This document shows, piece after piece, positions 28,631 to 64,000 of a stretch of DNA of 64,000 nucleotides. The position numbers and the translations under genes were made by a program. The stretch is taken from positions 11,906,001 through 11,970,000 of the forward strand of contig CM075992.1 in NCBI GenBank assembly GCA_038087875.1. The letters run 5' to 3'. This DNA comes from Malacoraja senta (taxonomy: Eukaryota). The notes beneath the pieces are model-generated. The model was not told the DNA's origin, ran no database searches, and saw nothing but the letters and a program-made list of their open reading frames with translations. Numbering within the stretch: the stretch's first letter is position 1; every line of letters begins with the position of its first letter.

Positions 28631-28705
28631 CTATGTTCTATGTTTTTGCTGCACTTGCCAGGGGATTTCTACGACCTCCCCTTCTATGCTCGATTCTTCA
28701 CGATG

Positions 28706-29020
28706 GTTTAGTTTAATTTAGTTTAGAGATACAGCGTGGAAACAGGCCCTTCGGCCCACCGGGTCCGCACTGACCAGCGATCCCCACGCATTAAAACTAT
28801 CCTACACACACTAGGGACAATTTACACTTATACCAAGCCAAATAACCTACAAACCTGTACGTGTTTGGAATGTGGGAGGAAACCAAAGATCTCAGAGAAA
28901 ATCCACGAGGTCACGGGGAGAATGTACAAAGTCTGTACAGACAGCACCCATAGTCAGGATCGAACCCGGGTCACCGGCGCTGTATGGCAGCAACTCTACC
29001 GCTGCGCCACTGTGCCACCG
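28706..29020 (-). mobile_element. Full-length V-SINE (HE1-like); mirror copy at 63673-63987 (+)
   Basis: A-box tggcgcagcgg, B-box ggttcgatcc, V-core, CR1-like 3' tail ending in (TAAAC)n. Confidence 0.9.
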
Positions 29021-30189
29021 TGGTTATAAATATTGAGAATAACTGATAAGTCATTGTACATTGTTGATGCCACAGCTAATGTATCTGTAAAGCTGCAGCA
29101 AGTAAGAATTTCATTGTTCCGGTTCACATCCGTTCCATTTGACAATTAAACACTCTTAAGTAGAAACAATTAGTTTGTACAAAACACAAAATGCTGGAAG
29201 AACTCAGTGGGTCAGGAAACACCTTTGATGAGAATGGACAGACAACATTTCAGGCTGGGTCACTTCTTCAGACTGTGTGTAGTAGTGGGGAGAAAGCAAG
29301 AAAGGTCAAGGTGGGTGGGAAAGGGTTAACAGAAGTGAGAACAAACAAGCTGTGGAAAGTAGCTGAAGAAAAGCAGATTCACACAAGCTGAAGCAGAAAC
29401 AGAGGAGGGGGGAGGGTGTAAATAGGGGAACTGGAGCTATGACCTCTGGGGCCCCGGGAAGGGAGGGAGGGAGGGGAAGGATGAGGTTGAGGGAAGGGAG
29501 CGTGGGAAAGGAGAGAAGGTTGGTGTTGAGAGGAGGTAGGTAAGGGGGAGGAGAGAATGGGTTTGTTGAGAGAGGGGGAGAAGCAGGAGAGGACAGAGAA
29601 GGCTGGTGTTGAGAGGGGTATGGGGAGAGGAGGGGATTGGTGTTGGAGGAGGAAGGTGAGGAAGGTGAGGAAGTTAGTGTTGAGAGGAGGGTCAGGAGAG
29701 GGGGTGGGTGTTCAGTGGGAGAGAGGGGAAGTGAGGGGGGTCACTATTGTGAGGAGGGGTGAGGGAGAGGAAGAGGTGACCGGCAGGGAATGCTTGAAAG
29801 CCGCCTTTTCCACAAATGTATTGCTGACTCTCAGTTTGCTGGAGAAATGGTCTCAACTGGGTCAAGCATCAAACTCCATCGGTTTAGGTCACTGTATACG
29901 CAAGGTTGCCCTCAGGGATAATATTTGGATCGGCCTGTAATTGCCAACAAGCAGCTTCCTGCAATGGTGATTTTCAAACTGGAGTCTTGGGACTAAATTA
30001 AATGTTTTTGTACATTTGGATTTGGCATTGAGTCGCTGGGACAGTCAGCTGATCGAGCTTGGCCAGCCTCTGGAACTCTGAAGGGCCGTGATGGAGATGG
30101 AGTAACTTGCACTGTGATATTTGAATGTCATGGAGATTAAGTCAGAGTCTGCATCCAAAATCAGACTGACATCAGTCTCTGTCAGTTAT

Positions 30190-31850
30190 GGAGGGAATCC
30201 CGTTGCAGCAACATTTTACTCTTTACCCCACTGCCCCTGATTCCTCACAATCATCCCTGGGTCCTGGCCACTGGGTTCAGCCTGGCCAATGCCAGCAGCC
30301 ACCTCACTCAACTGACCATTTATTGCACCACAGCCACCAACATGGGTTTCATCAACAAAACTGGAGATGGTCTCCTCACATCTCCAGCATATCGTCAACC
30401 TGAGCCTGAGCCTGGAGAGGGTTCCTGTGATGTGGAAGACGTACTGCCCGGACCCTGTATAATAGAGGACATGTCCCAGCTCCTCCAATGACTACAGACC
30501 AGTGGCGCTGACCTCACACATCATGAAGTCCCTGGAGAGGCTGGTCCTCAGTCACCTGCGACCCCTGGTTAAACCCTACCTTAACCCCCTGCAGTTCACT
30601 TAACAAACAAAGGTGGGGGTGGAGGACGCCATCATCCACCTGGTCCATCATTCCTATGCTCACCTGGATAGGCCAGAAAGCCCTGCGAGAACCATGTTTG
30701 TTTACTTCTCTCCTGCTATTAACAACGTCTGGCCTGCACTGCTAGGGAGCAAACTGATGAAGATGAGGCTGGATGCTCCATTGGTGTTCTGGATCACTGA
30801 CTACCTGACTAGACAACAACAGTATGTCAGGCTGTGGTATGTCAGACATGGTAGTGAGCAACACACGGGCTTCACAGGGGATGGTTCTCGGTCCCTTCCT
30901 GTTCACCATCTACAACTCGGACTTCAGATACAATGCAGACTCCTGCCACCTGTTGAAGTTTTCAGATGTCTCTGCAATTGTGGGCTACATCAGTGAGGGA
31001 AGGGAAGCTGAATACAGAGGTATAGTCAACGACTTTGTTGAGTGGTGTGGGCGGCATCACCTGCAGCTGAACACCAACAAGACTAAGGAGTTAGTGGTGG
31101 ACCTCAGAAAGAGAGGAACACCCGTCCCCTGTCTCCATCATGGGTGTGGATTTGCAGTTTATCTAGGAGTACAAGTACCTTGGAGTGTACCTGGCAGTAA
31201 ACTGGACTGGTCCAGGAACGCTGAAGCACTGTATAAAAAGGGTCAGAGCCATCTGTTCTTTCTGAGGAGACTCCACTCCTTCAACATCTGCAGTAAGATG
31301 TTGCAGATGTTCTACCAATCTGTGGTGGCCAGTGCCATCTTCTACGCTGTTGTGTACAGGGGTAGCAGGGCAAAGGCTTTGGATACAAACAGATTTATCA
31401 AGCTCATCATGAAGGCAGGCTCCATCCTTGGAGTGGAGTTAGATTCATTGGAGGTCATCTTGGAGGGGAGGATGCTCCTCAAACTGTGGAGCATCTTGGA
31501 CAATACAGCTCACCCCCTCCATGACACACTGGTCAACCTGAGGAGTGCCTTCAGCAACAGACTGGTTCCTCCAAGATGCAGCACAAAACCCCACAGGAGA
31601 TCCTTCTTCCCTGTGGCTATCAAACTATACAACTCCTCGCCCTTCTGTCATGGGGTAGACTGACTCCAACCCATCCCCCCCCCATCCAATCCCCTCCACC
31701 CCATTATTTGGACATCCTCAATCCTGGACTTTCCACTCGTCACTTTAATTTAATGTTTCATGTATTTGTTGTGTTTCAGTACTGTTGGCAGACCAATTCT
31801 CCCCCCCCCCCCCCCCCCCGGGATAAATAAAGTTATATCATATCGCATTA
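30190..31850 (+). mobile_element. Degenerate Rex1/Babar RT fragment; mirror copy at ~60865-62520 (-)
   Basis: NDYRPVALTSHIMK, GVEDAII, QGMVLGPFLFTIY, KTKELVVD, RRSFFPVAIKLYN, followed by an aataaa tail. Confidence 0.85.
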
Positions 31851-32049
31851 TCCGGCAACAGTTTACAGCTTTTGTCCTGTGATCTTGGCATATGAGTCCA
31901 CTCGACAAGGAGCATATCCCACATGGGTAGCTTACAACCCATCGGTATCTTAATTGAATTCTTCAATTCCAAGTAATATCTCCTTACCGTCTCTCTATGT
32001 CCTGTGGCCCCTCCCGGCACTGTTGCGTACCCATTTCTCCCATTATCTC

Positions 32050-32235
32050 TCACCCAACCACTGCAAAAAACTATATTAATATTTGTTATTTGCACTATAT
32101 TTGTTATTTATGGAACTTTTCTTTTTTTCCCCGTTATATACAATGTTTACATATTCTGTTGTGCTGCAGCAAGTAAGAATTTCATTGTCCCGTCCGGGAC
32201 ATATGAGAATAAAAACACTCTTGACTCTTGACTCT
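32050..32235 (+). mobile_element. Short LINE 3' UTR fragment with (GACTCTT)n tail; related pieces at 14636-14680, 15541-15585, 18483-18555 and 29080-29160
   Basis: Shared motif atgtttacatattctgttgtgctgcagcaagtaagaatttcattgt...aaaacactcttgactc. Confidence 0.6.
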
Positions 32236-34004
32236 GCTCCTTTCCCCTCCTTTGAAGACTCGTCTCCCATCCCTGACTATCCCATTGCCATTTAATTCCA
32301 TCTTTCCCCCGCCCATCTCCTCCCCACACAATTCACTCCTGTTTCCTTCTTATCTGACAGGCTTTTTGTTTCCTCTTCATCTCTATCATTTACTGCACTC
32401 ATCTGCCAAACACCCCACCCCCAGATATATCCACATCACTTGCCAGGCCCCACGCCCATCCATCTTTTCCAACTTTCTCCCCACTACTCCATCAGTTTGA
32501 AAGGTCACGATCTAAAATGTCATCTGTCCAATCCCTCCACAGATGCTGCCTGACCCACTGAGTTGCTCCAGCACTTTGACTTCTGTATTTGACACTTTTA
32601 GTAACCATGTCCGTGATGACCTGTTGGGATACTAAAGTCAATGAGCAAGACCCACACAAGGGCCGGTCAGTTCCGAGTACGTTAAGTGGACATCATGACT
32701 GGTTCTTTATGGAACTCTGACCTTCTGGATTCAGACGCCGTTAACATCTTTACATTGGCACTTCTCACAAAGGGATCCCTGTAAAATCACACCACAGGCC
32801 TCTCCTAGAGAATAATTTTCTATTCAATTTTTGGAAGGCACACTGGCTGGGCAAGATCCCCGCATCGAGTGTAAGCCACAGAGTCGCGATTAGTTGGAGT
32901 AGGGCGATTATCAGCACATCGTGATTTAGGCAGAAAGAATGTGGTAAGCATGATAACAGATATGGTAAGAATGTTTAGTTTAGAGATACAGCGTGGAAAC
33001 GGGAGCTGATTTCGTGAGAACTGGGAAATCCATGCATTTGAAAGATCGATTATCATTTAATAATAGAAAAAAAGAAAAGTTTAGTCAAACCGCAGAGCAA
33101 AGTATTGGGAACCAGCAGAGAACATGACCCTCTTGCCACCCCCGTCCCCCACGATCACACTGACCATGATGCCGATCTACGCTGATCCCAATTACCTGGA
33201 TGAAGCCGGTATTCACTTACATCTTTCCTTTCCAAGCACTTGTCCAAACCGATTTAAACATTGTAATTTCCCCTCTCTCATCTTACATCAAAACCTTAAG
33301 TTCTATATTCAACAGCCTTGTGGAAAAAGACTGACTCGGGCGTTCTCCGTGGAGGGAAATAGAGAGACAACATTTTGGGTCGGGACCTTTCTCGCACAAC
33401 ATCCTGGTTAACCTTTTCTGCCACTCTCACCATTACTATAACATTATTTTGGAAGTTTAGTTGAGTTTACAGATACAGTATGGAAACAGGCCCCGTGGCC
33501 TATTGAGTCATGCCGATCATCAATCAATCACCCTTTCACATTAGTTCTATATTATCCCATTTTCTCATACACCCTACATACGTGCGGCAATTTACAGAGG
33601 CTAATTAACAAGTCTTTGGGATGTGGGAGGAAACTGGAATACCTGGAGGAAACTCAACTTATCTTTGCTATAGCAGGGTTTCCAAAACTCAACATAATAA
33701 ATCAAATGCAATAATCTGTAAATGATTAAATCTATAGACATTTTCGTCAATTGGGATCAAACCTGCTGAAGCCGCTTCCCATGGTCATAGAACATAGAGC
33801 ATGTCTGCACGATGCATATCCCTGTATTCCCTGCATAACCATGAGCCTATCTAAAAACCTCCTAAACACCACAATTGTATCTGCCTCCACCACCAGCCCT
33901 GGCAGCAACGTTCCAGACACCCAACACACTGTTAAACAACTTGTCCCGCGCATCTTCTTTAAACTTCTCTATAAACTGTTGCCCGCTTACCTTAAAGCTA
34001 TCTA

Positions 34005-34440
34005 CACAAAAAGCTGGAGCAACTCAGCGGGACAGGCAGCATCTCCGGAGAGAAGGATTGGGTGACGTTTCGGGTCGAGACCCTTCTTCAGTTTGGGAAA
34101 TGTGAGATATAGACTATGATGTAGAGATAAAGAACAATGAATGAAATATATGCAAAAAACTAACGATAATAAAGGAAACAGGCCATTGTTATCTGTTTGT
34201 TGGGTGAAAAACGAAAAGCTGGTGCGACTTGGGTGGGGGAAGGATAGAAAGAAAGGAAATGCCAGGGTTACTTGAAGTTAGATAAATCGATATTCATAGC
34301 ACTGGGCTGTAAACTGCTCAAGAGAAATATGGGATTTGCGTTTAGCCTCACTCTGACAATGGAGGAGACCTTGGACAGAAAGGTCTGTGTGGGAATGGAA
34401 AGGAGAATTAAAGTGTTTAGCAACCGGGAGATCAGACCTT
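34005..34440 (-). mobile_element. Penelope 3' fragment; mirror copy at ~58275-58715 (+)
   Basis: LPVAKHFNSP...MNIDLSNFK C-terminus plus terminal repeat. Confidence 0.8.
34061..34091 (-). ncRNA. Minimal type I hammerhead ribozyme motif
   Basis: Minus strand reads CTGAAGA-A-GGGTCTCGACCC-GAAAC-GTC-ACC. Confidence 0.65.
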
Positions 34441-35889
34441 AAAACTGTGCTCTCTCGGCTTTGGCATTTCCACCCTGGGAAAAAGGTTCTGATTGTCTAC
34501 CCTGTCTATGCCTCTCGTTGTTTGGTACAGCCATAATGATCATGCAGAGTCGGGGAAAGCAAGCCCCTGACTGTCTGAAGAATGGTCTCGACCCAAAACA
34601 TCCCCCATTCCTTCTCTCCAGAGATGCTGTCTGGCCCGCTAACTCCAGCTTTTTGTGTCTATCTTCGGCGAAAGCAGAGGCGACATTGCGGCTACACAGC
34701 AGCGGAACATGTGGGACTCACTCACACCTTCACTAATGGTCTTCGAGTGCAGCGCGCACCTTTTCAAACTAATATTTTTTAAGAAGTTCCACCCACACAC
34801 TGCCTGAGGACACAACATGTACCAGCTTTTCCCCACGTACTATTGAGTCTACAATTGTCTTGTATTCATGAATGAGCTTCCACAGTTCAAGGCGATCACT
34901 TTCTGTATTGCAACATTGCAGGGAGAACAGTTTCACGTTGCGCTGACCGCTACAACTGCCAGCAAGCTGTGGGCTTCTTGGAGACTCCCACCACTGTGCG
35001 AGTGAAACCACGACTATTTTTAGTGCACAGGGCTGCTCCGGCAGCTGGTGACAACATTCACTCGCTCGGGAGAGAGTGTGGAAAATGGAATGTGCAGAAA
35101 CGGAGTTACCCTGAGATGGGGCAGAGAGGGAGGAAAAGTCACCACGATGAATAAAGATCAAATCAAAGATAGATGTAGCGATATAGATAAGGTGGTGGTG
35201 ACAGGGAAAGAGACTTGGAATAACAACCACGACACGCTGGGAGAGTCAATTAAAATGTAAAGGAAGGTCCCAATCGGAAAGGTCCCGACCCGTTCATTCC
35301 CTCCACAGATGCTGCTCGATCCAGCACTTTGTGTTCGCCAGAAGTCTAATTATCCGGTCTGAACATTATTTAAGAGGTAAGAGAATGGATCCTTTTCTAT
35401 GTATATGAAGGAAGGAAATCGTAAAGCTGAGAAGACCATGAGTAATTCTTACAGAAAAAGATACAACGTTTAACTGTATAATAATGTTGAGACGGCGTGT
35501 TACACGGAGATAAATATCCCTTCACATACCCAATAGAAGGTAGCTGTACACGGCTCGCATCCTGCTCTCAGAAAGATCGAACTGTTGTACGACTCACATA
35601 GTCCAGCAGAACTTCAGCAGCTGTACAGAGGCACGCCCCACAGAGGAGGACATGAAGTTCAGATCCGGCCAGTTCCCAGACCTATCAATGCACCGGACGT
35701 TAAAGCTGGAGGAGACACGTGAGGCTGCAGATGCTGTAATCTGGAGCGACAATCTGCTGGAGGATCTCAGCGCCCAGAGCTGGGTCTGTGGGGCAAAAAC
35801 GGTTCAGTTTGAGCATCAGAGACCGTCCTGATGCAGGGTCTGGACCCAAAACGTCGATAATTTGTGTGTCCCACCCCCCACCCACAGTC

Positions 35890-36534
35890 TACAAATACTT
35901 TGCATCGGAATTGAGCAAGGAGAAAGGCATAGGTGATGGTGAGATTAGTGAGTGTTTAATATTCTCGGGCATGTCGATATTAAGGAAGAGCAGCTATTGT
36001 GTGTCTTGGAGAACATTAAGGAAGACAAGGACATGGAGCCTGGTAGAATCTATCCAAGGATACTAATAGAGGCAAGGGAGGAGATACTTGACCGGGATAA
36101 TCTGGGAAACTATAGGCAAGTAAGACGCCTGCTGTGGTGGCAGGCGTGGCCAGGGTGCCTGTGGCGGCAAAGGCAGGGACCGTGTGGGAATGGTAGGTGT
36201 GGCCGGAGCGGTGGTGGTGGAAGCGTTGCTAACAGCAGGAGAGGCGCCACAAGCCAGGGGTGTAAGATTGAAGAAGATTTTTAAGGACAGGATTTGATAT
36301 TTGCATTTGGGAAATCATGGATTTATTAGTAATATTCAGAGTGGCTTTATGTGGGGCAGGTTCTATCTTACAAATTTGATTGAGGTTATCGAGGTGACGA
36401 CATTAAGTGATGAGTGTTGGGTAATGGATGTAGTCTACATAGATGTAGTTAGTAAATCATTTGACAATGTTCTTCATGATAGGTGGGTTTAGAAGATTAA
36501 ATCACATGGGATCCACGGAGATTTGGGCGATTTG
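35890..36534 (+). mobile_element. CR1 RT fragment adjoining the DIRS-A end; mirror copy at ~56175-56845
   Basis: PGRIYPRILIEAREEI and QSGFMWGRFYLTNLIE...DVVYID..SKSFDNV. Confidence 0.75.
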
Positions 36535-39450
36535 ATAGTAAGATTAAACGAGAATTTACCAGTTTGAAGTTTGATCTTTATTTTATGAGTTACGATGAGG
36601 GATTACGTGAAGAGCCCGTCCAGCCGCACACGCGTCAATCTTCAAAGCAGCGGTGTGAAATCACAGACAACAATTACTGAAGTGTGATAGTAAGATACGT
36701 AAAGACTAGAACTACCAGCTCGATCTTTATGAGGGTGTGAGTGGAGGGCACGTAATCCCTCATCGTAACTCCTCATAAAATAAAGATCAAACTTCAAACT
36801 GGTAAGTTCTCATTCAATCTTGCTATTTTACTTCGGAGTCACGTGAGTGACTACGTGAAGATTTCAAAGCTCTGTGATTTCACGCCATTGATTCAAATCC
36901 AGGTGTCTCACTGCATTGATTGACTAAATGAATAAAAGCAATCAACAATGCATAACCACAACATAAATGTAATCAGTTAATGGTTTTATTTATCACAACA
37001 ATAGTAACCCCTTTATCATAATGGGGGACTTAATACTGAATCCAAAACAGCACCACCAAATAACCCAGGATCTTTAATCTCCTTATGGTAATACTTGTGA
37101 AACATCTGTTCACTTGCCCATCCTGCGGCCGTGAGGATATGGTCTATTGGAACGTCCAAATCCTTGGCCACCGATGTTGATGCCGCCCTGGTGGAATGAG
37201 ATTTAAATTTGTCAGTATCAATACCTGCATCAACCTGCTTCAGCCATCTTGAAATAGTCTGTACCGACACTTTCTTATGCGGTTTTTTATAGCTGACAAA
37301 GAATGCTGATTCTGCACCTCTTAAGGTTCTGGTTGCTTCAATGTAACATCGTAAATGTGCTACTTCACATAGACGTGGATCCGTAGGATATGCTGAAAAC
37401 CCCAACTTACATCCTGTGAACACAGGTCTACTCTGTTTAAGCAAATCATAGACATAGAATGTAATGGCATCTGCTGCTATTTTCATCCTGTCTATTTGTA
37501 ATTTCTGCAATGTTTGCACTCTCTGTGTTGAAACCAGTGCCCTGAGCATAACTAACTTCATGGTAATTTTAGCCAATGACAGAACTTCAATAGGCGTCCA
37601 TTGGCGAAGGAACATAAGCACATCTCTTACATTCCAGATTTCTATATACCTGGGTCTTGGAGGATTGGAATTTAAAAATTCCCTTCATAAACATACAGAC
37701 CCAAGGGTGTGATCCTATAGGATTTTGTTCTGATTCCCTGCATAGATATGCAGAAAGAGCACTCCTTGCAGTATTGATCACACTATAGCTCAAATGCAAA
37801 TCAAAATAAAGAGTTGAAAGAAACTCTAACACATCTGAAATGTCTGCAGTGTGATATGTAATATTCTTTTGTGAACAAAACACCTCCCATTTCCTTATAT
37901 AAGAAATGTACTGCTTCTGGGTACTATTCCCCCAGGCTGCCACCATAATATCCACAGTACGCTCTGATAATCCTCTTCCGAGATACGGACTTCTTAGAAT
38001 CTGCAAATCAATAAAACAATACGATCATGTAAAGGATGTGATTCACCAGTTACATGGTGCACAAGCAGGTTTTCCTGCTTAGGAATAATCATAAGGGGCC
38101 TTGTGATCATTTTTAACACCAGAGGCTACCACGGCTGTGTAGGCCAGTCTGGTACCACTAAAACCCCTGAAGCGGAGTCCTGTTTAATTTTCTGTATACA
38201 CCGATTAATGAGGCAAAACGGAGGAAATGCATACAGAAACTTAAAATACCCCAATGTATCGAGAAAGCATCCACCGCTACTGCACCAGGATCAGGTTCCC
38301 ATGACACATACTTAAGCAATTGGTGGTTAAGTCTTGATGCAAACAAATCTATCTCTGGCATCCCGAACCTAGCCACAATTTTATTAAATTTTTCACGATC
38401 CAACATCCACTCTGTATTGTCTGAATTTATGTGACCTTGTGTCTGCAACTATGTTGAGTCTACCTGATAGGTAGATTGCCGAAAGCCAAATCTTTCTGGT
38501 AATACACCAGGTCCAGATCACGTTTGCCAATCTATCACAAGATTCTGACTTGATACCACCCATATGATTAACATACGCTACAGCTGTAGTATTGTCAATC
38601 TGTACCTGAATATGTAATTTTTTAATATTAGAACAATAAGCTTTAAGCCCGTAAAATGTTTCTAAAAGCTCTAGGTAATTTATACCTTGATCTTGGAGCA
38701 AAGGTACTTCCTCCACATTCCATCTACCTCCACAGCTGGAAACAGTATTAGTGGCGCCCCAACCTAGAGCACTTACATCAGTCTGTAGAATAATGGAAGG
38801 TGTTGCAACCAGAATTTGTCTGGAAGCCTTAGAGACATTGTTAATCCTCCATTCTAATTCCGTAATAGCCTCAATTGTTAATTGCATGGGCCTGTCAAAA
38901 TGTCCTGCATTCATCCTTAATCGCTGCAAATGCTGATAATGCAGTGGTCGAAACCGTACAGCTGGAAAAGAAGCAATTAATTTGCCCAAACAAGCTTGTT
39001 ACCTGCCTAATTGAGGGTTGGTGCTCTGTAATGAGCTTAATACAACCTTCAATTAACTGCAGCCTTTTATCGTTTGGCAAAGTGACTGCCATGTGTTCTG
39101 AATTAATGGTAAAACACAGGTAATCAATTTCTGTGCTTGGTAATAGTTTGGATTTATGTGGGTGAATGATTAATCCTAGCCTCTCGAAAATGAGCTTAAT
39201 TCTTGACACTAATGCTTCTGATGTAGCCAATGTAGTTGATAGCATTCTAAAGTCATGTTTAATTCTTTGGCAATATAACAATATGTCTTATCATGCCATT
39301 GCAGTCCAGAGCTCCTGGCTTAGGAAGCCTTGTTTGAGCTGTGCCTATCAGACACCTGTGGGAGCTACATCTGGTGGTGTCATGGTAATTTCCGCTCACT
39401 AGAGGGGACTGTTGAAGATTCTTTCACAAGAGACTCCAACTATATGCATA
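36535..39450 (-). mobile_element. DIRS retrotransposon A (partial RT, RNase H, methyltransferase-like domain, tyrosine recombinase, ICR and right end), frameshifted
   Basis: YR motifs QRVQTL, HSTRAAS, AGW, FHKYY. RNase H motifs LQTDVSALGWG, INYLELL, IDNTTAVAYVN. IDLFASRLN. Terminal hairpin between 36535-36610 and 36749-36826. Confidence 0.9.
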
Positions 39451-39879
39451 TCAATAAAGTAGTTGAATCTCTGATTTATAGGGATACGCTTCTTGTAATC
39501 ATATAAACGTAATTGCCTATGACAACACCTGGCAGGGTTGCAGTATTTCTCCCACTCTGTCTGGCGTATGAGGGCCATAAGTGCTCCAGTCCTTCCCTGT
39601 AAAACTCCGTTGGCTCCAGAAGGGAGCAAGGACTCTGAGTCACTAGCAGGTGCAATCTGTTTGGTAAATGATGATACCAACAGAGCACCGATCTGCAGCT
39701 AGTCCCGATTCGGCTGCTGAAGGGAGCAGCCTGACAACCCCAAGTCGGGGCAAAGTCATAGCCAAGTCTTGGAACATCTATGGCAGATGTGATTGGGCAT
39801 TTGTCTCAATTAGAACATCTGATGAATCAAATGATAACACAAGAATTGCTCCGTGTTACAAAGGCTTGTCAGGCAGCAG

Positions 39880-40345
39880 CTACTGGTTCAGGGTTGCAAT
39901 TTTTTCTCCCACTCAGATGAAAGGAGTAGTGGAGAAGGTGCCAAAATATATGCACAGATGCCTGAAGCAGCTCCTGGTTCAGGATTGCATATTTTTCCTC
40001 CCGCTCGGATGAACGGAATGATGGAGATGGTGCATAACTATATATGCACACATGCTGGAGGCAGCGCCTGGTTCAGGGTTGCATAAATCCTCCCACTCGG
40101 ATATATGAAGTGATGGAGATGGAGCCATATATATTATGCTCTGTATTACGGAAGCATGCACAGGCAGTTCAACCTGCCCCTGGTTTCAGGGTTGGGATAT
40201 TCCTCCCACCCGAAAGACTATCGGAGATGGTGTCACAAAATATGCTCGGTGTTATGGAAGCATGCACAGACGGTCTGAGGCATACGCATATGGCAACGCC
40301 TGGTTCAGGGTGCAATTTTTTCTCCCACTCTAAGAGAGTGTCGGA
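39880..40345. repeat. Degenerate tandem array, five units of ~90-120 bp; mirror copy at ~52345-52810
   Basis: Core ctggttcagggttgca..tctcccactc recurs at ~39883, 39973, 40067, 40179 and 40299, with a dispersed copy at ~39528. Confidence 0.85.
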
Positions 40346-40525
40346 GATCAGTATGGACTGACTCCAATCATGACCCCGAACATGACAATGTGCCGGGATC
40401 CCATGCTTTAATGCATGATGTGTGACAATCGCATAAGGAAGAGCTGCGTGCTCTTGCCTCTAAAATTGCTGTTCCCTCGGGGATGGACAAGCCACTACAA
40501 GAGGAATTGGCCAGCGGCATCAGCT

Positions 40526-47920: not shown

Positions 47921-47965
<45 letters not shown>

Positions 47966-48400: not shown

Positions 48401-48538
48401 CGTGACAGAGCCGGTGCGTCAACGGCCGTGGCCTGTCGGCCCGCAGCCCCATTGAGGGCGTACGCAACGTCTTGACGGCGTATGCCGCCTACGCCGTCAA
48501 CACGCTGCGTACGCCGTCAAGACGCTGCCTACGCCGTC

Positions 48539-51741: not shown

Positions 51742-53239
51742 AAGCATATGTTGAGAAAACCTTCAACTACTTTATTCTATTGAACAGTCTGATAACCTCA
51801 ATCACAGATGATGAAGCAGTGCACTATGACTCCTATGGCCAGCCAGATCCATGATGGTCTACCCTGATCCAGGGTAACCAAACTGTTCCTACTTGGAACT
51901 TACAGAGGTTACTATGCAAGGCACCTTGCCAATGTCTCTACATCAACCTGATCTATCCCTGCTACAGTGAAAACGACTAGACAGCCCATGCTGGCAGTAA
52001 ACCCAACCTGGGCCGACAGACTGCTCCATTTCGGAGTTTACGAAGGTTAATAACGATACCTTACTTACCAGCGTCTCTAACCCCGGGTCGATTTTCTTTG
52101 TTGGAGCTTCAGTGAAGTTCCATTTGCAGACCCTATCTATCATGCTTGCCATTTCTGTTAGACAGCTGATGCCGCTGGCCAATTCCTCTTGTAGTGGCTT
52201 GTCCGTCCCCGAGGGAACAGCAATTTTAGAGGCAAGAGCACGCAGCTCTTCCTTATGCGATTGTCACACATCATGCATTAAAGCATGGGATCCCGGCACA
52301 TAGTCATGTTCGGGGTCATGATTGGAGTCAGTCCATACTGATCTCCGACACTCTCTTAGAGTGGGAGAAAAAATTGCACCCTGAACCAGGCGTTGCCATA
52401 TGCGTATGCCTCAGACTGTCTGTGCATGCTTCCATAACACCGAGCATATTTTGTGACACCATCTCCGATAGTCTTTCGGGTGGGAGGAATATCCCAACCC
52501 TGAAACCAGGGGCAGGTTGAACTGCCTGTGCATGCTTCCGTAATACGGAGCATAATATATATGGCTCCATCTCCATCACTTCATATATCCGAGTGGGAGG
52601 ATTTATGCAACCCTGAACCAGGAGCTGCCTCCAGCATGTGTGCATATATAGTTATGCACCATCTCCATCATTCCGTTCATCCGAGCGGGAGGAAAAATAT
52701 GCAACCCTGAACCAGGAGCTGCTTCAGGCTTCTGTGCATATATTTTGGCACCTTCTCCACTACTCCTTTCATCTGAGTGGGAGAAAAAATTGCAACCCTG
52801 AACCAGTAGCTGCTGCCTGACATGCCTTCGTAACACGGAGCAATTCTTGTGTTATCATTTGATTCATCAGATGTTCTAATTGAGACAAATGCCCAATCAC
52901 ATCTGCCATAGATGTTCCAAGACTTGGCTATGACTTTGCCCCGACTTGGGGTTGTCAGGCTGCTCCCTTCAGCAGCCGAATCGGGACTAGCTGCAGATCG
53001 GTGCTCTGTTGGTATCATCATTTACCAAACAGATTGCACCTGCTAGTGACTCAGAGTCCTTGCTCCCTTCTGGAGCCAACGGAGTTTTACAGGGAAGGAC
53101 TGGAGCACTTATGGCCCTCATACGCCAGACAGAGTGGGAGAAATACTGCAACCCTGCCAGGTGTTGTCATAGGCAATTACGTTTATATGATTACAAGAAG
53201 CGTATCCCTATAAATCAGAGATTCAACTACTTTATTGAT

Positions 53240-56174
53240 ATGCATATAGTTGGAGTCTCTTGTGAAAGAATCTTCAACAGTCCCCTCTAGTGAGCGGAAA
53301 TTACCATGACACCACCAGATGTAGCTCCCACAGGTGTCTGATAGGCACAGCTCAAACAAGGCTTCTTAAGCCAGGAGCTCTGGACTGCAATGGCATGATA
53401 AGACATATTGTTATATTGCCAAAGAATTAAACATGACTTTAGAATGCTATCAACTACATTGGCTACATCAGAAGCATTGGTGTCAAGAATTAAGCTCATT
53501 TTCGAGAGGCTGGGATTAATCATTCACCCACATAAATCCAAACTATTACCAAGCACAGAAATTGATTACCTGTGTTTTACCATTAATTCAGAACACATGG
53601 CAGTCACTTTGCCAAACGATAAAAGGCTGCAGTTAATTGAAGGTTGTATTAAGCTCATTACAGAGCACCAACCCTCAATTAGGCAGGTAGCAAGCTTGTT
53701 TGGGCAAATTAATTGCTTCTTTTCCAGCTGTACGGTTTCGACCACTGCATTATCAGCATTTGCAGCGAGCAAAGGTACACACATTAAGGATGAATGCAGG
53801 ACATTTTGACAGGCCCATGCAATTAACAATTGAGGCTATTACGGAATTAGAATGGTGGATTAACAATGTCTCTAAGGCTTCCAGACAAATTCTGGTTGCA
53901 ACACCTTCCATTATTCTACAGACTGATGTAAGTGCTCTAGGTTGGGCGCCACTAATACTGTTTCCAGCTGTGGAGGTAGATGGAATGTGGAGGAAGTACC
54001 TTTGCTCCAAGATCAAGGTATAAATTACCTAGAGCTTTTAGGAACATTTTACGGGCTTAAAGCTTATTGTTCTAATATGAAAAAATTACATATTCAGCTA
54101 CAGATTGACAATACTACAGCTATAGCGTATGTTAATCATATGGGTGGTATCAAGTCAGAATCTTGTGATAGATTGGCAAACGTGATCTGGACCTGGTGTA
54201 TTACCAGAAAGATTTGGCTTTCGGCAATCTACCTATCAGGTAGACTCAACATCGTTGCAGACACAAGGTCATGAAAATTCAACGACAATACAGAGTGGAT
54301 TTTGGATCTTGAAAAATTTAATGAAATTGTGGCTAGGTTCGGGATGCCAGAGATAGATTTGTTTGCATCAAGACTTAACCACCAATTGCCTAAGTATGTG
54401 TCATGGGAACCTGATCCTGGTGCAGTAGCGGTGGATGCTTTCTTGATACATTGGGGTATTTTAAGTTTCTGTATGCATTTCCTCCGTTTTGCCTCATTAA
54501 TCGGTGTATACAGAAAATTAAACAGGACTCCGCTTCAGGGGTTTTAGTGGTACCAGACTGGCCTACACAGCCGTGGTAGCCTCTGGTGTTAAAAATGATC
54601 ACAAGGCCCCTTATGATTATTCCTAAGCAGGAAAACCTGCTTGTGCACCATGTAACTGGTGAATCACATCCTTTACATGATCGTATTGGTTTATTGATTT
54701 GCAGATTCTAAGAAGTCCGTATCTCGGAAGAGGATTATCAGAGCGTACTGTGGATGTTATGGTGGCAGCCTGGAGGAATAGTACCCAGAAGCAGTACATT
54801 TCTTATATAAGGAAATGGGAGGTGTTTTGTTCACAAAAGAATATTACATATCACACTGCAGACATTTCAGATGTGTTAGAGTTTCTTTCAACTCTTTATT
54901 TTGATTTGCATTTGAGCTATAGTGTGATCAATACTGCAAGGAGTGCTCTTTCTGCATATCTATGCAGGGAATCAGAACAAAATCCTATAGGATCACACCC
55001 TTGGGTCTGTAGGTATATGAAGGGCATTTTTAAATTCCAATCCTCCTACACCCAGGTATATAGAAATCTGGAATGTAAGAGATGTGCTTATGTTCCTTCG
55101 CCAATGGACGCCTATTGAACTTCTGTCATTGGCTAAAATTACCATGAAGTTAGTTATGCTCAGGGCACTTGTTTCAACACAGAGTGCAAACATTGCAGAA
55201 ATTACAAATAGACAGGATGAAAATAGCAGCAAATGCCATTACATTCTATGTCTATGATTTGCTTAAACAGAGTAGACCTGTGTTCACAGGATGTAAGTTG
55301 GGGTTTTCAGCATATCCTACGGATCCACGTCTATGTGTAGTAGCACATTTATGATGTTACATTGAAGCAACCAGAACCTTAAGAGGTGCAGAATCAGCAT
55401 TCTTTGTCAGCTATAAAAAAACGCATAAGAAAGTGTCGGTACAGACTATTTCAAGATGGCTGAAGCAGGTTGATGCAGGTATTGATACTGACAAATTTAA
55501 ATCTCATTCCACCAGGGCGGCATCTACATCGGTGGCCAAGGATTTGGACGTTCCAATAGACCATATCCTTACGGCCGCAGGATGGGCAAGTGAACAGATG
55601 TTTCACAAGTATTACCATAAGGAGATTAAAGATCCTGGGTTATTTGGTGGTGCTGTTTTGGATTCAGTATTAAGTCCCCCATTATGATAAAGGGGTTACT
55701 ATTGTTGTGATAAATAAAACCATTAACTGATTACATTTATGTTGTGGTTATGCATTGTTGATTGCTTTTATTCATTTAGTCAATCAATGCAGTGAGACGC
55801 CTGGATTTGAATCTATGGCGTGAAATCACAGAGCTTTGAAATCTTCACGTAGTCACTCACGTGACTCCGAAGTAAAATAGTAAGATTGAATGAGAACTTA
55901 CCAGTTTGAAGTTTGATCTTTATTTTATGAGGAGTTACGATGAGGGATTACGTGCCCTCCGCTCACACCCTCATAAAGATCGAGCTGGTAGTTCTAGTAT
56001 TTATGTATCTTACTATCACACTTCAGTAATTGTTGTCTGTGATTTCACACCGCTGCTTTGAAGATTGACGCGTGTGCGGCTGGACGGGCTCTTCTTCACG
56101 TAATCACTCATCGTAACTCCTCATAAAATAAAGATCAAACTTCAAACTGGTAAATTCTCGTTTAATCTTACTAT
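53240..56174 (+). mobile_element. DIRS-A, mirror copy
   Basis: Same RNase H, MT-like and YR fragments as 36535-39450. ICR at 55843-55954, right terminus at 56067-56174. Confidence 0.9.
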
Positions 56175-58626
56175 CAAATCGCCCAAATCTCCGTGGATCC
56201 TATGTGATTTAATCTTCTAAACCCACCTATCATGAAGAACATTGTCAAATGATTTACTAACTACATCTATATAGACTACATCCATTACCCAAAACTCATC
56301 ACTTAATGTCGTCACCTCGATAACCTCAATCAAATTTGTAAGATAGGACCTGCCCCACATAAAGCCACTCTGAATATTACTAATAAATCCATGATTTCCC
56401 AAATGCAAATACCAAATCCTGTCCTTAAAAATCTTCTTCAATCTTACACCCCTGGCTTGTGGTGCCTCTCCTGCTGTTAGCAACGCTTCCACCACCACCG
56501 CTCCGGCCACACCTACCATCGCCATGGCCAGCAGCCCTTGGGCTGTTCCCACGCGGTCCCTGCCTTTGCCGCTACAGGCACCCTGGTCGCTCCTGCCACC
56601 ACAGCAGGCGTCTTACTTGCCTATAGTTTCCCAGATTATCCCGGTCAAGTATCTCCTCCCTTGCCTCTATTAGTATCCTTGGATAGATTCTACCAGGCTC
56701 CATGTCCTTGTCTTCCTTAATGTTCTCCAAGACACACAATAGCTGCTCTTCCTTAATATCGACATGCCCGAGAATATTAAACACTCACTAATCTCACCAT
56801 CACCTATGTCTTTCTCCTTGCTCAATTCCGATGCAAAGTATTTGTAGACTGTGGGTGGGGGGTGGGACACACAAATTATCGACGTTTTGGGTCCAGACCC
56901 TGCATCAGGACGGTCTCTGATGCTCAAACTTAACCGTTTTTGCCCCACAGACGCTGCTCTAGGCGCTGAGTTCCTCCAGCAGATTGTTTGTTGCTCCAGA
57001 TTACAGCATCTGCAGTCTCACGTGTCTCCTCCAGGGTTAACGTCCGGTGCATTGATAGGTCTGGGAACTGGCCGGATCTGAACTTCATGTCCTCCTCTGT
57101 GGGACGTGCCTCTGTACAGCTGCTGAAGTTCTGCTGGACGATGTGAGTCGTACAACAGTTCGATCTTTCTGAGAGCAGGATGCGAGCCGTGTACAGCTAC
57201 CTTCTATTGGGTATGTGAAGGGATATTTATCTCCGTGTAACACGCCGTCTCAACATTATTATACAGTTAAACGTTGTATCTTTTTCTGTAAGAATTACTC
57301 ATGGTCTTCTCAGCTTTACGATTTCCTTCCTTCATATACATAGAAAAGGATCCATTCTCTTACCTCTTAAATAATGTTCAGACCGGATAATTAGACTTCT
57401 GGCGAACACAAAGTGCTGGATCGAGCAGCATCTGTGGAGGGAATGAACGGGTCGGGACCTTTCCGATTGGGACCTTCCTTTACATTTTTAATTGACTCTC
57501 CCAGCGTGTCGTGGTTGTTATTCCAAGTCTCTTTCCCTGTCACCACCACCTTATCTATATCTCTACATCTATCTTTGATTTGATCTTTATTCATCGTGTT
57601 GACTTTTCCTCCCTCTCTGCCCCATCTCAGGGTAACTCCGTTTCTGCACATTCCATTTTCCACACTCTCTCCCGAGCGAGTGAATGTTGTCACCAGCTGC
57701 CGGAGCAGCCCTGTGCACTAAAACTAGTCGTGGTTTCACTCGCACAGTGGTGGGAGTCTCCAAGAAGCCCACAGCTTGCTGGCAGTTGTAGCGGTCAGCG
57801 CAACGTGAAACTGTTCTCCCTGCAATGTTGCAATACAGAAAGTGATCGCCTTGAACTGTGGAAGCTCATTCATGAATACAAGACAATTGTAGACTCAATA
57901 GTACGTGGGGAAAAGCTAGTACATGTTGTGTCCTCAGGCAGTGTGTGGGTGGAACTTCTTAAAAAATATTAGTTTGAAAAGGTGCGCGCTGCACTCGAAG
58001 ACCATTAGTGAAGGTGTGAGTGAGTCCCACATGTTCCGCTGCTGTGTCGCCGCAATGTCGCCTCTGCTTTCGCCGAAGATAGACACAAAAAGCTGGAGTT
58101 AGCGGGCCAGACAGCATCTCTGGAGAGAAGGAATGGGGGATGTTTTGGGTCGAGACCCTTCTTCAGACTGTCAGGGGCTTGCTTTCGCCGACACTGCATG
58201 TTCATTATGGCTGTACCAAACAACGAGAGGCATAGACAGGGTAGACAATCAGAACCGAGAGAGCATAGTTTTAAGGTCTGATCTCCCGGTTGCTAAACAC
58301 TTTAATTCTCCATCCCATTCCCACACAGACCTTTCTGTCCAAGGTCTCCTCCATTGTCAGAGTGAGGCTAAAAGGAAATCCCATATTTCTCTTGAGCAGC
58401 TTACAGCCCAGTGCTATGAATATCGATTTATCTAACTTCAAGTACCCCTGGCATTCCCTTTCTTTCTATCCTTCCCCCACCCAAGTCGCACCAGCTTTTC
58501 GTTTTTCACCCAACAAACAGATAACAATGGCCTGTTTCCTTTATTATCGTTAGTTTTTTGCATATATTTCATTCATTGTTCTTTATCTCTACATCATAGT
58601 CCATATCTCACATTTTCTGTAAGAAA

Positions 58627-58657
58627 CTGAAGATGGGTCTTGACCCGAAACGTCACC
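58627..58657 (+). ncRNA. Minimal type I hammerhead ribozyme motif (mirror of 34061-34091)
   Basis: CTGAAGA-T-GGGTCTTGACCC-GAAAC-GTC-ACC. Confidence 0.65.
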
Positions 58658-61600
58658 CAATCCTTCTCTCCGGAGATGCTACCTGTCCCGCTGAGTTGCT
58701 CCAGCTTTTTGTGTAGATAGCTTTAAGGTGAGCGGGCAAAAGTTCATAGAGAAGTTTAAAGAAGATGCGCGGGATAAGTTGTTTAACAGTGTGTTGGGTG
58801 TCTGGAACGTTGCTGCCAGGACTGGTGGTGGAGGCAGATACAATTGTGGTGTTTAGGAGGTTTTTAGATAGGCTCATGGTTATGCAGGGAATACAGGGAT
58901 ATGCATCGTGCAGACATGCTCTATGTTCTATGACCATGGGAAGCGGCTTCAGCAGGTTTGATCCCAATTGACGAAAATGTCTAAAGATTTGATAATTTAC
59001 AGATTATTGCATTTGAATTATTATGTTGAGTTTTGGAATCCCTGCTATAGCAAAGATAAGTTGAGTTTCCTCCAGGTATTCCAGTTTCCTCCCACATCCC
59101 AAAGACTTGTTAATTAGCCTCTGTAAATTGCCGCACGTATGTAGGGTGTATGAGAAAATGGGATAATATAGAACTAATGTGAAAGGGTGATTGATTGATG
59201 ATCGGCATGACTCAATAGGCCACGGGGCCTGTTTCCATACTGTATCTGTAAACTCAACTAAACTTCCAAAATAATGTTATAGTAATGGTGAGAGTGGCAG
59301 AAAAGGTTAACCAGGATGTTGTGCGAGAAAGGTCCCGACCCAAAATGTTGTCTCTCTATTTCCCTCCACGGAGAACGCCTACATAGATACTGAGTCAGTC
59401 TTTTTCCACAAGGCTGTTGAATATAGAACTTAGGTTTTGATTTAAGATGAGAGGGGAGAAATTACAATGTTTAAATCGGTTTGGACAAGTGCTTGGAAAG
59501 GAAAGATGTAAGGGAATACCAGCTTCATCCAGGTTATTGGGATCAGCGTAGATCGGCATCATGGTCAGTGTGATCGTGGGGGACCGGTGTGGCAAGAGGG
59601 TCCTGTTCTCTGCTGGTTCCCAATACTTTGCTCTGCGGTTTGACTAAACTTTTCTTTTTTTCTATTATTAAATGATAATCGATCTTTCAAATGCATGGAT
59701 TTCCCAGTTCTCACGAAATCAGCTCCCGTTTCCACGCTGTATCCCTAAACTAAACATTCTTACCATATCTGTTATCATGCTTACCACATTCTTTCTGCCT
59801 GTCACGATGTGCTGATAATCGCCCTACTCCAACTAATCGCGACTCTGTGGCTTACACTCGATGCGGGGATCTTGCCCAGCCAGTGTGCCTTCCAAAAATT
59901 CAATAGAAAATTATTCTCTGGGAGAGGCCTGTGGTGTGATTTTACAGGGATCCCTTTGTGAGAAGTGCCAATGTAAAGATGTTAATGGCGTCTGAATCCA
60001 GAAGGTCAGAGTTCAATAAAGAACCAGTCATGATGTCCACTTAACGTACTCGGAACTGACCGGCCCTTCTGTGGGTCTTGCTCATTGACTTTAGTATCCC
60101 TACAGGTCAACATGGTTACTAAAACTGTCAAATACAGAAGTCAAAGTGCTGGAGCAACTCAGTGGGTCAGGCAGCATCCGTGGAGGGATTGGACAGATGA
60201 CATTTTAGATCGTGACCTTTCAAACTGATGGAGTAGTGGGGAGAAAGTTGGAAAAGATGGATGGGCGTGGGGCCTGGCAAGTGATGTGGATATATCTGGG
60301 GGTGGGGTGTTTGGCAGATGAGTGCAGTAAATGATAGAGATGAAGAGGAAACATAAAGCCTGTCAGATAAGAAGGGAACAGGAGTGAATTGTGTGGGGAG
60401 GAGATGGGCGGGGGAAAGATGGAATGAAATGGCAATGGGATAGTCAGGGATGGGAGACGAGTCTTCAAAGGAGGGGAAAGGAGCAGAGTCAAGAGTCAAG
60501 AGTGTTTTTATTGTCATATGTCCCGGATGGGACAATGAAATTCTTACTTGCTGCAGCACAACAGAATATGTAAACATTGTATATAACGGAGAAAAAAAAT
60601 TCCATAAATAACAAATATAGTGCAAATAACAAATATTAATATAGTTTTTTGCAGTGGTTGGGTGAGAGATAATGGGAGAAATGGGTACGCAACAGTGCCG
60701 GGAGGGGCCACAGGACATAGAGAGACGGCAAGGAGATATTACTTGGAATTGAAGAATTCAATTAAGATACCGATGGGTTGTAAGCTACCCATGTGGGATA
60801 TGCTCCTTGTCGAGTGGACTCATATGCCAAGATCACAGGACAAAAGCTGTAAACTGTTGCCGGATAATGCGATATGATATAACTTTATTTATCCCGGGGG
60901 GGTGGGGGGAGAATTGGTCTCCCAACAGTACTGAAACACAACAAATACATGAAACATTAAATTAAAGTGACGAGTGGAAAGTCCAGGATAGAGGATGTCC
61001 AAATAATGGGGTGGAGGGGATTAGATGGGGGGATGGGTTGGAGTCAGTCTACCCCACGACAGAAGGGCGAGGAGTTGTACAGTTTGATAGCCACAGGGAA
61101 GAAGGATCTCCTGTGGGGTTTTGTGCTGCATCTTGGAGGAACCAGTCTGTTGCTGAAGGCACTCCTCAGGTTGACCAGTGTGTCATGGAGGGGGTGAGCT
61201 GTATTGTCCAAGATGCTCCACAGTTTGAGGAGCATCCTCCCCTCCAAGATGACCTTCAATGAATCTAACTCAACTCCAAGGATGGAGCCTGCCTTCATGA
61301 TGAGCTTGATAAATCTGTTTGTATCCAAAGCCTTTGCCCTGCTACCCCTGTACACAACAGCGTAGAAGATGGCACTGGCCACCACAGATTGGTAGAACAT
61401 CTGCAACATCTTACTGCAGATGTTGAAGGAGTGGAGTCTCCTCAGAAAGTACAGATGGCTCTGACCCTTTTTATACAGTGCTTCAGCGTTCCTGGACCAG
61501 TCCAGTTTACTGCCAGGTACACTCCAAGGTACTTGTACTCCAAGATAAACTGCACATCCACACCCATGATGGAGACAGGGGACGGGTGTTCCTCTCTTTC

Positions 61601-64000
61601 TGAGGTCCACCACTAACTCCTTAGTCTTGTTGGTGTTGAGCTGCAGGTGATGCCGCCCACACCACTCAACAAAGTCGTTGACTACACCTCTGTATTCAGC
61701 TTCCCTTCCCTCACTGATGTAGCCCACAATTGCAGAGACATCTGAAAACTTCAGCAGGTGGCAGGAGTCTGCATTGTATCTGAAGTCCGAGTTGTAGATG
61801 GTGAACAGGAAGGGACCGAGAACCATCCCCTGTGAAGCCCCTGTGTTGCTCACTACCATGTCTGACATACCACAGCCTGACATACTGTTGTTGTCTAGTC
61901 AGGTAGTCGGTGATCCAGGACACCAATGGAGCATCCAGCCTCATCTTCATCAGTTTGCTCCCTAGCAGTGCAGGCCTGACGTTGTTAATAGCAGGAGAGA
62001 AGTAAAAAAACATGGTTCTCGCAGGGCTTTCTGGCCTATCCAGGTGAGCATAGGAATGATGGACCAGGTGGATGATGGCGTCCTCCACCCCCACCTTTGT
62101 TTGTTAAGTGAACTGCAGGGGGTTAAGGTAGGGTTTAACCAGGGGTTGCAGGTGACTGAGGACCAGCCTCTCCAGGGACTTCATGATGTGTGAGGTCAGC
62201 GCCACTGGTCTGTAGTCATTGGAGGAGCTGGGACACGTCCTCTATTATACAGGGTCCGGGCAGTACGTCTTCCACATCACAGGAACCCTCTCCAGGCTCA
62301 GGCTCAGGTTGGCGATATGCTGGAGATGTGAGGAGACTATCTCCAGTTTTGTTGATGAAACCCATGTTGGTGGCTGTGGTGCAATAAATGGTCAGTTGAG
62401 TGAGGTGGCTGCTGGCATTGGCCAGGCTGAGCCCAGTGGCCAGGACCCAGGGATGATTGTGAGGAATCAGGGGCAGTGGGGTAAAGAGTAAAATGTTGCT
62501 GCAACGGGATTCCCTCCATAACTGACAGAGACTGATGTCAGTCTGATTTTGGATGCAGAGTCTGACTTAATCTCCATGACATTCAAATATCACAGTGCAA
62601 GTTACTCCATCTCCACCACGGCCCTTCAGAGTTCCAGAGGCTGGCCAAGCTCGATCAGCTGACTGTCCCAGCGACTCAATGCCAAATCCAAATGTACAAA
62701 AACATTTAATTTAGTCCCAAGACTCCAGTTTGAAAATCACCATTGCAGGAAGCTGCTTGCTGCCAATCACTGGCCGGTCCAAATATTATCCCTGAGGGCA
62801 ACCTTGCGTATACAGTGACCTAAACCGATGGAGTTTGATGCTTGACCCAGTTGAGACCATTTCTCCAGCAAACTGAGAGTCAGCAATACATTTGTGGAAA
62901 AGGCAGCTTTCAAGCATTCCCAGCATTCACCTCTTCCTCTCCCTCACCCCTCCTCACAATAGTGACCCCCCTCACTTCCCCTCTCTCCCACTGAACACCC
63001 ACCCCCTCTCCATACCCTCCTCTCAACACTAACTTCCTCACCTTCCTCCTCCAACACCAATCCCCTCCTCTCCCCATACCCCTCTCAACACCAGCCTTCT
63101 CTGTCCTCTCCTGCTCCTCCCCCTCTCTCAACAAACCCATTCTCTCCTCCCCCTTACCTACCTCCTCTCAACACCAACCTTCTCTCCTTTCCCACTCTCC
63201 CTCCTCTCAACCCCATCCTTTCCCTCCCTCCCTTCCCGGGGCCCCAGAGATCACAGCTCCAGTTCCCCTATTTACACCCTTCCCCCTCCTCTGTTTCTGC
63301 TTCAGCTTGTGTGAAATTGCTTTTCTTCAGCTACTTTCCACAGCTTGTTTGTTCTCACTTCTGTTAACCCTTTCCCACCCACCTTGACCTTTCTTGCTTT
63401 CTCCCCACTACTACACACAGTCTGAAGAAGTGACCCAGCCCGAAATGTTGTCTGTCCATTCTCATCAAAGGTGTTTCCTGACCCACTGAGTTCTTCCAGC
63501 ATTTTGTGTTTTGTACAAACTAATTGTTTAAACTTAAGAGTGTTTAATTGTCAAATGGAACGGATGTGAACCGGAACAATGAAATTCTTACTTGCTGCAG
63601 CTTTACAGATACATTAGCTGTGGCATCAACAATGTACAATGACTTATCAGTTATTCTCAATATTTATAACCACGGTGACACAGTGGCGCAGCGGTAGAGT
63701 TGCTGCCATACAGCGCCGGTGACCCGGGTTCGATCCTGACTATGGGTGCTGTCTGTACAGACTTTGTACGTTCTCCCCGTGACCTCGTGGGTTTTCTCTG
63801 AGATCTTTGGTTTCCTCCCACATTCCAAACACGTACAGGTTTGTAGGTTATTTGGCTTGGTATAAGTGTAAATTGTCCCTAGTGTGTGTAGGATAGTTTT
63901 AATGTGTGGGGATCGCTGGTCAGTGCGGACCCGGTGGGCCGAAGGGCCTGTTTCCACGCTGTATCTCTAAACTAAATTAAACTAAACCATCGTGAAGAAT

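Follow-up and report, generated by a model that had tools for sequence, protein, structure and literature searches.

False heterotype duplications (Ko et al. 2022, PMC9516828; Rhie et al. 2021, PMC8081667) are the described systems closest to the locus reported here. In such cases near-identical copies lie on one scaffold with a gap between them, diverge on the scale of heterozygosity and duplicate part of a gene in a repeat-rich heterozygous genome, features that the present locus appears to share; a gap between the copies is given as a hallmark of false duplications and is absent for true ones (PMC9516828). Our locus differs in that its copies are inverted, an orientation that the accessible text on the known cases does not mention; false heterotype duplications are further marked by half read depth on both copies, by discordant read pairs and by copy-specific k-mers at the one-copy level. 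Hi-C scaffolding is also reported to join duplicates falsely where haplotigs were left unpurged, with a skate among three examples and 21% duplicated BUSCOs in the primary contigs of the thorny skate (HapSolo, PMC7788845). The join mechanism proposed below would be the same, yet the accessible text of that paper gives no join geometry, unlike the inverted join here; a literature search found no description of the inverted form of a haplotig join, and 'invert' occurs 0 times in the accessible text of PMC9516828. True palindromes and inverted segmental duplications resemble the locus in having long inverted arms, a kilobase spacer and a gene start in each arm; here, however, the arms are 98.3% identical and are broken by a gap. 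In ampliconic sex-chromosome palindromes, gene conversion keeps the arms >99.9% identical, and the sequence runs unbroken from arm to spacer.

The window, a 64-kb stretch of the Malacoraja senta assembly, was compared with itself by BLAST and by global alignment. Positions 28693-43476 are the reverse complement of 48739-64000 (BLAST E-value 0.0, well outside what chance would give), which bears out the initial annotation in its claim of an inverted duplication with arms of at least 14.8 kb around a 5 kb spacer and a gap. The outer limit of arm A at 28693 is imposed by the window end and is not a boundary; the outer edge lies beyond the window. The arms and their main differences are as follows:

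28693..43476, left arm (A), 14,784 bp, from self-BLAST and global alignment
48739..64000, right arm (B), 15,262 bp, reverse complement of arm A, beginning at the first base after the gap
28693-40525 versus 64000-52164, collinear minus-strand self-BLAST block 1, 97.3%
40521-41131 versus 51588-50976, collinear minus-strand self-BLAST block 2, 98.4%
41243-43476 versus 50974-48739, collinear minus-strand self-BLAST block 3, 97.9%
51589..52168, 580 bp in B only (largest B-only indel), missing from A at ~40520, with a 5-bp repeat flanking the missing piece
41133..41242, 110 bp in A only (largest A-only indel), within a ~157-bp local direct repeat whose arrangement differs in B

In the global alignment, 14,365 of 14,606 aligned columns match, leaving 241 substitutions (1.65%; 132 transitions and 109 transversions), and the divergence becomes 1.84% once the 28 indel events are counted. 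The innermost 300 nt of the arms hold 4 mismatches. The identity of 98.35% over aligned columns lies below the ~99.9% that marks palindromes maintained by gene conversion, and arms and spacer are not continuous in the assembly, being interrupted by the 200-N gap. Counted in blocks of 500 columns, the divergence shows mild over-dispersion (index 1.55, P 0.03), a result that does not separate alleles from paralogues. The 580-bp segment in B is ordinary transposon sequence, and the difference is probably a deletion in arm A, because the 5-bp repeat occurs at both ends of the missing piece.

The centre of the structure and, in the last entry, the arms contain these features:

48539..48738, scaffold gap, exactly 200 N, the single N run in the window
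43477..48538, spacer, 5,062 bp, single copy
48487..48538, 20-bp tandem repeat, 2.6 copies, in a GC-rich stretch and reaching the gap, the left contig ending within the repeat
43340..43714, minus strand, putative Penelope-type reverse-transcriptase frame, unbroken across the inner edge of A (43476); B has only the part up to 43476
43797..46192, plus strand, second DIRS-like element, in the spacer, 70% identical to the DIRS-like element of the arms
36535..38998, minus strand, decayed DIRS-like element in both arms, with tyrosine recombinase frames at 37016-37684 and 37587-38024

The gap separates the two copies on one scaffold, and arm B begins flush with it at 48739, exactly as had been noted before. 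A 200-N join carries no information on distance or orientation. The frame at the inner edge, which we take to be Penelope-type from its motifs, extends 238 bp past the arm edge on the A side; at a Pfam threshold of E 0.01, no family was found for 7 of 15 frames, three Penelope-type frames included. Because B opens directly behind the gap, in the middle of this frame, its inner edge is a contig end, and no breakpoint is visible there. No long copy of the spacer at ≥90% was found in arm B, where only a 70% older DIRS-like relative and terminal pieces of 38-80 bp were detected. The DIRS-like element of the spacer carries inverted repeats of ~79 bp at 45886-45964 and 46114-46192.

Both arms carry the start of a gene, whose exons in the window are:

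35530..35560, minus strand, coding exon 1, arm A copy, 31 nt with ATG and GT donor
57180..57210, plus strand, coding exon 1, arm B copy, identical to the A copy, same donor
14091..14177, minus strand, exon 2, 87 nt, AG/GT, phase 1-1, signal peptide end and N-terminal cysteine segment, outside the arm in this window
2621..2773, minus strand, exon 3, 153 nt, AG/GT, phase 1-1, calcium-binding EGF domain (EGF_CA, E 1.9e-9)

The peptide of exon 1 matches the N-terminus of the ADGRE-like proteins P0001 and P0002 at 9 of 10 residues (score 39, reached by 0 of 200 shuffles). Exons 1-3 together match P0001/P0002 with compatible phases, giving the signal peptide followed by a calcium-binding EGF domain that is expected of ADGRE (EGF-TM7) genes. 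The EGF exon is 87% and 84% identical to two skate proteins, XP_055486856.1 (Leucoraja erinacea) and XP_032906753.1 (Amblyraja radiata), and the same signal-peptide, short cysteine and calcium-binding EGF exons are found in the ADGRE genes of cartilaginous fish (these two, XP_067877053.1 and XP_067829250.1). A motif scan found no GPS or 7TM exon within the 64-kb window; such an exon would lie to its left. GPS and 7TM are present in P0003-P0005, which have 43-45% identity to the N-terminus of P0001; only the more distant shark and teleost matches carry them, and both skate models are without them, like this window. Homology therefore supports an ADGRE-like (EGF-TM7) assignment, as had been proposed, with the GPS/7TM part of that proposal absent from the window. 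The two exons that the proposal referred to, 2 and 3, are present, and their mirror positions, should the mirror continue, compute to 78516-78602 and 89920-90072, in agreement with the initial annotation. It erred in placing the duplication upstream of the gene, as it had overlooked coding exon 1 with its ATG in both arms. The two exon 1 ATGs are 21,620 bp apart in the assembly and face away from each other. Exon 1 lies within a 348-bp identical stretch, the second longest of the arm; we rejected this as a signal of selection, since its length is about that expected by chance at 1.8% divergence. Only one gene model with this EGF exon type was found in each of the two other annotated skates, a cluster of 1 each. 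The skate protein P0001 has 9 near-identical EGF repeats, and ADGRE genes are prone to duplicate locally. A literature search on ADGRE copy number in cartilaginous fish returned nothing on point by title or abstract start.

A haplotype artefact and a real inverted duplication are both known kinds of thing. We consider it probable that a second haplotype escaped purging and that Hi-C scaffolding attached it head to head, that is, a false heterotype duplication and an ordinary assembly error. The two arms would then be the maternal and paternal versions of a single locus, comprising the promoter, exon 1 and intron 1 of the ADGRE-like receptor gene, in a heterozygous skate. Assembly of both haplotype contigs may have broken off around one difficult point, the first ending at the 20-bp tandem repeat (48538) and the second 5 kb earlier inside the Penelope-type element, and the second may have escaped purging. 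The scaffolder, finding its strongest contacts between the two homologous ends, would have set them against each other across a placeholder gap. Since both ends point in one genomic direction, such a join would require one contig to be turned round, producing the look of a palindrome, and the 'spacer' would be the 5 kb reached by only one haplotype contig. Several observations argue for this reading: the inner edge of B coincides with the gap edge to the base, inside a frame that continues on the A side; the copies flank a gap, the hallmark of false duplications (PMC9516828); each annotated skate has one gene model in a cluster of 1; each of the 54 joins in a YaHS Hi-C-scaffolded assembly is a 200-N gap (PMC12134992); and unpurged haplotigs are a cause of false Hi-C joins. 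The initial annotation was undecided between a palindrome and an uncollapsed haplotype; the gap at the arm edge, the position of that edge in a continuous transposon frame and the allelic scale of the divergence make the haplotype the better fit.

The scale of divergence bears on both readings. Heterozygosity is 1.56-1.6% in the little skate (PMC10115646), pairwise diversity in the thorny skate is 0.0057 (0.57%) at one site with repeats masked (PMC11772779), and heterozygosity in VGP species is 0.1-1.1%, one finch excepted (PMC8081667). The arm divergence of 1.65% (1.84% with indel events) thus matches little-skate heterozygosity, which favours the haplotype reading, and is about three times thorny-skate diversity, which speaks against it, as does the range of most VGP species; all skate values in this comparison come from other skates. 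Word content was compared with 24 public runs, all of them contigs and none raw reads. One unrelated allele at this distance is expected to share 0.60 of arm-A words, and a genome with both arms ~0.80 or more. The two best runs (X21 and X22) contain 0.63 and 0.62 of arm-A words, and B shares 0.60 with A over the same stretch, although coverage and species identity confound these figures. The remaining 22 of the 24 runs contain 0.10-0.22 of the words, reflecting relatives or shared repeats, and were not used as evidence; no run came near 1.0. Logan contigs undergo graph simplification and a 150-bp cut-off (PMC12424806). Being near 0.60, the two best shares lean slightly towards the haplotype reading, a weak argument that fails if the runs come from a sister species or their contigs have sequence missing.

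If the arms were instead a technical palindrome, the same haplotype would have been copied in reverse, through a chimeric long read that folded back or through a contig end full of errors (homotype duplication), and the ~15-kb arms do compare with the read-length palindromes (7-17 kb) seen at gaps in VGP assemblies (PMC9516828). The copies of a homotype duplication are identical or differ by sequencing-error patterns, and neither is the case here. Only 2 of the 28 indels are 1-bp homopolymer slips and 16 are ≥3 bp, while CpG-type transitions number 39 of 132 against 27.4 ± 4.6 expected (5000 random placements, P 0.011). It is on this random-placement test that the CpG excess rests, not on the column comparison, in which CpG columns differ at 58/822 and others at 175/13,726 with 8 substitutions beside gaps dropped and the CpG class partly defined by the differences themselves. 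With 241 substitutions against 28 indel events, few homopolymer slips, the CpG excess and the 580-bp indel, the differences look like real germline mutations rather than read errors. As B also holds 580 bp of transposon sequence absent from A, and a fold-back would give no one-sided 5-kb spacer, a technical palindrome is largely refuted and scarcely credible.

A real young inverted segmental duplication, ≥14.8 kb long and taking in the ADGRE-like gene's promoter and exon 1, with arms that drifted by 1.65% without gene conversion, is the more serious rival, although we hold it to be unlikely. Its true centre would lie inside the gap, for instance in a satellite array from 48487, and the left contig does end in a tandem repeat that may be the edge of an unresolved centre. 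The excess over thorny-skate diversity, the intact and identical exon 1 copies, the retention of both copies by the assembly, and the internal exon duplications in this gene family of a skate, together with its habit of local duplication, all speak for it and in part against the haplotype reading. Yet no breakpoint is seen, as B halts at the gap in mid-element, so that the gap would need to have swallowed either 5 kb of the inner part of arm B or the real junction; a 5-kb spacer between 98%-identical arms should be within the reach of long accurate reads; and identity shows no gradient towards the centre (Spearman -0.15, P 0.44). A second model is also absent in the two other skates, which says little on a lineage-specific event. 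The remaining alternative is that B is a real paralogue belonging at another place in an ADGRE cluster, or a haplotype of different structure, with only its placement or orientation at the gap wrong (a tandem or dispersed duplicate reversed). The freedom of distance and orientation at a 200-N join permits this, but it has no direct evidence and shares the burden of the real-duplication reading, so we regard it as very improbable.

Should the favoured haplotype artefact hold, the locus would be a matter of curation only: gene annotation would be inflated by a second ADGRE-like gene or a spurious 5' fragment, a false gain of a gene or exon, and reads from the promoter and exon 1 would be divided between the copies in mapping. 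A lineage-specific inverted duplication, which we consider unlikely, would, provided that the mirror continues, give two head-to-head ADGRE-like immune receptor genes with intact start exons ~21.6 kb apart plus the gap, a centre filled with transposons and repeats, and arms diverging freely at 1.65%. Within a fast-evolving family of immune receptors, such a pair would be a young duplicate, of interest to specialists in cartilaginous-fish immunity yet of the ordinary segmental duplication kind, and would show a leukocyte adhesion-receptor paralogue newly arisen, at a datable time, in a cartilaginous fish.

The initial annotation had claimed an inverted duplication, and self-BLAST of the window confirmed the observation: 28693-43476 (arm A) mirrors 64000-48739 (arm B) in 3 collinear minus-strand blocks at 97.3-98.4% identity. 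Global alignment of the arms yielded 14,365 matches, 241 substitutions (1.65%) and 28 indel events; the K2P distance is 1.67%, with no gradient in divergence along the arms. The outer limit of arm A is dictated by the window end, which it mirrors. The window's one run of N (200 bases, 48539-48738) is followed directly by arm B, which starts at the next base. This inner edge cuts a reverse-transcriptase frame (43340-43714) that goes on for 238 bp on the A side. As the edge both coincides with the gap and interrupts a continuing frame, it is a contig end. The left contig stops 5 kb later than arm B's edge, within a 20-bp tandem repeat; the stretch 48100-48538, GC-rich with C runs and with this terminal repeat entering the gap, is the likely cause of the contig break. 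Both arms carry a 92-bp tandem repeat (2.8 copies, 79% match; 39875-40134 and 52555-52814), which adjoins their longest identical stretch, 536 bp from 39324.

Only 2 of the 28 indels are homopolymer slips of 1 bp, while 16 measure at least 3 bp. CpG-type transitions account for 39 of 132, versus 27.4 ± 4.6 under random placement (P 0.011), and arm B has 580 bp absent from A, with a 5-bp repeat at both ends. The differences are biological, and both arms are genuine versions of this DNA, either alleles or paralogues. These indel types, CpG transitions and the B-only piece rule out a fold-back read or an error-driven copy, and a technical palindrome is scarcely credible as the explanation of the mirror.

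The majority of long frames are decayed retrotransposon pieces. LINE frames match RVT_1 and endonuclease, and frames at 37016-38024 match tyrosine recombinase; from such motifs we take the window's elements to include DIRS-like and Penelope-type ones. Of the decayed elements, two are DIRS-like (tyrosine recombinase) and share 70% identity; they lie at 36535-38998, 43797-46192 and 53782-56174. Those of arm A and the spacer are in opposite orientation, each with a ~78-bp inverted-repeat pair at one end, and form an older inverted pair inside the left contig. Within the B-only piece, 51678-51744 has short matches (87-97%) to 45853-45890 and 46084-46149, in the terminal region of the DIRS-like element in the spacer; one end of another nested copy is therefore probably included in the piece. 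LINE reverse-transcriptase fragments at 1858-2462 and 15658-16258 (intron 2 and intron 1 region) are 78.5% identical in opposite orientation, and one Penelope-type family has dispersed copies, 66-85% identical, at 6341-6787, 14682-15528, 24812-25514 and 41959-43714.

The mirror is most likely an uncollapsed haplotype, reverse-joined at the scaffold gap, a reading we consider probable. Two haplotype contigs would end near the same point, and joining of their homologous ends would leave one flipped. Joins made by Hi-C or curation are commonly marked by a run of 200 N. One YaHS-scaffolded assembly is described with 200 N at 54 of 54 gaps (PMC12134992), and the HapSolo paper links unpurged haplotigs to the false joining of duplicates during Hi-C scaffolding and gives 21% duplicated BUSCOs for thorny-skate primary contigs (PMC7788845). 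Little-skate heterozygosity, stated as 1.56-1.6% (PMC10115646), counts for alleles at the observed divergence. Such divergence would be high for some skates, as one table row gives a thorny-skate pairwise diversity of 0.0057 with repeats masked (PMC11772779) and most VGP genomes are placed at 0.1-1.1% (PMC8081667); against this objection stands the enrichment of false duplications at 1.5-1.8 times background noted by Ko et al., who also name four hallmarks of false duplication (PMC9516828), one of them an assembly gap between the two copies, as seen here and reported absent from true duplications. Words of 28700-38600 reached shares of 0.63 and 0.62 in the best 2 of 24 public runs and 0.60 in arm B. 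The simple expectation is 0.60 with a single unrelated allele, 0.74 with two, and 0.80 with both arms in the genome and random bubble removal. These shares weakly favour alleles, and a sister species or incomplete contigs could explain them equally; Logan is described as dropping contigs ≤150 bp (PMC12424806).

If the gap conceals its centre, a real inverted duplication is compatible with all sequence facts, and the ADGRE family duplicates readily, P0001 (XP_032906753.1, Amblyraja radiata) having 9 near-identical EGF units; however, arm B's junction must then be lost inside the gap, and we regard this origin as possible but rather unlikely. Conversion-maintained palindromes show identity far above that of the present arms. 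That arm B is a misplaced paralogue is very improbable.

The window holds one host gene, on the minus strand, with these predicted exons.

Exons of the ADGRE-like gene
2773-2621, minus: exon 3, calcium-binding EGF, 153 nt, EGF_CA E 1.9e-9, AG/GT, phase 1-1
14177-14091, minus: exon 2, 87 nt, AG/GT, phase 1-1
35560-35530, minus: exon 1 copy in arm A, 31 nt, ATG start, GT donor, phase 1
57180-57210, plus: exon 1 copy in arm B, 31 nt, ATG start, GT donor, phase 1

A six-frame scan of the window for the 10 N-terminal residues of P0001 returned two best matches, 35560-35531 (minus) and 57180-57209 (plus), with 9 of 10 residues identical; their score of 39, versus 29 for the runner-up, was reached by 0 of 200 shuffled windows. 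The predicted coding exon 1, newly found here, is thus contained in both arms in identical 31-nt copies, and its phase 1 donor is compatible with the phase 1-1 exons 2 and 3. Introns 1 and 2 (~21.4 kb and ~11.3 kb) are full of decayed retrotransposons. The EGF exon matches both candidate proteins, the Amblyraja radiata model at 84% and the Leucoraja erinacea 'ADGRE2-like' model (P0002, XP_055486856.1) at 87%, which places the window in a skate or a close relative. Receptors of sharks and teleosts that carry GPS and 7TM domains match the P0001 N-terminus at 43-45%, which supports assignment of the gene to ADGRE, though the GPS/7TM exons would lie outside the window.

Each of the two skate proteins forms a cluster of 1, and 7TM domains are absent from both models. 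P0002, 144 aa on a 97.7-kb contig, seems to end by read-through of the EGF exon donor, and P0001, annotated 'LTBP2-like', resembles a fragment from the N-terminus of an ADGRE protein. Two other skate assemblies therefore contain the locus in broken form, which speaks neither for nor against a duplicate and suggests that it is hard to assemble. Because exon 1 lies within both arms, the duplication comprises the promoter, exon 1 and the beginning of the 21-kb intron, and with start codons 21,620 bp apart the head-to-head arrangement is already visible.
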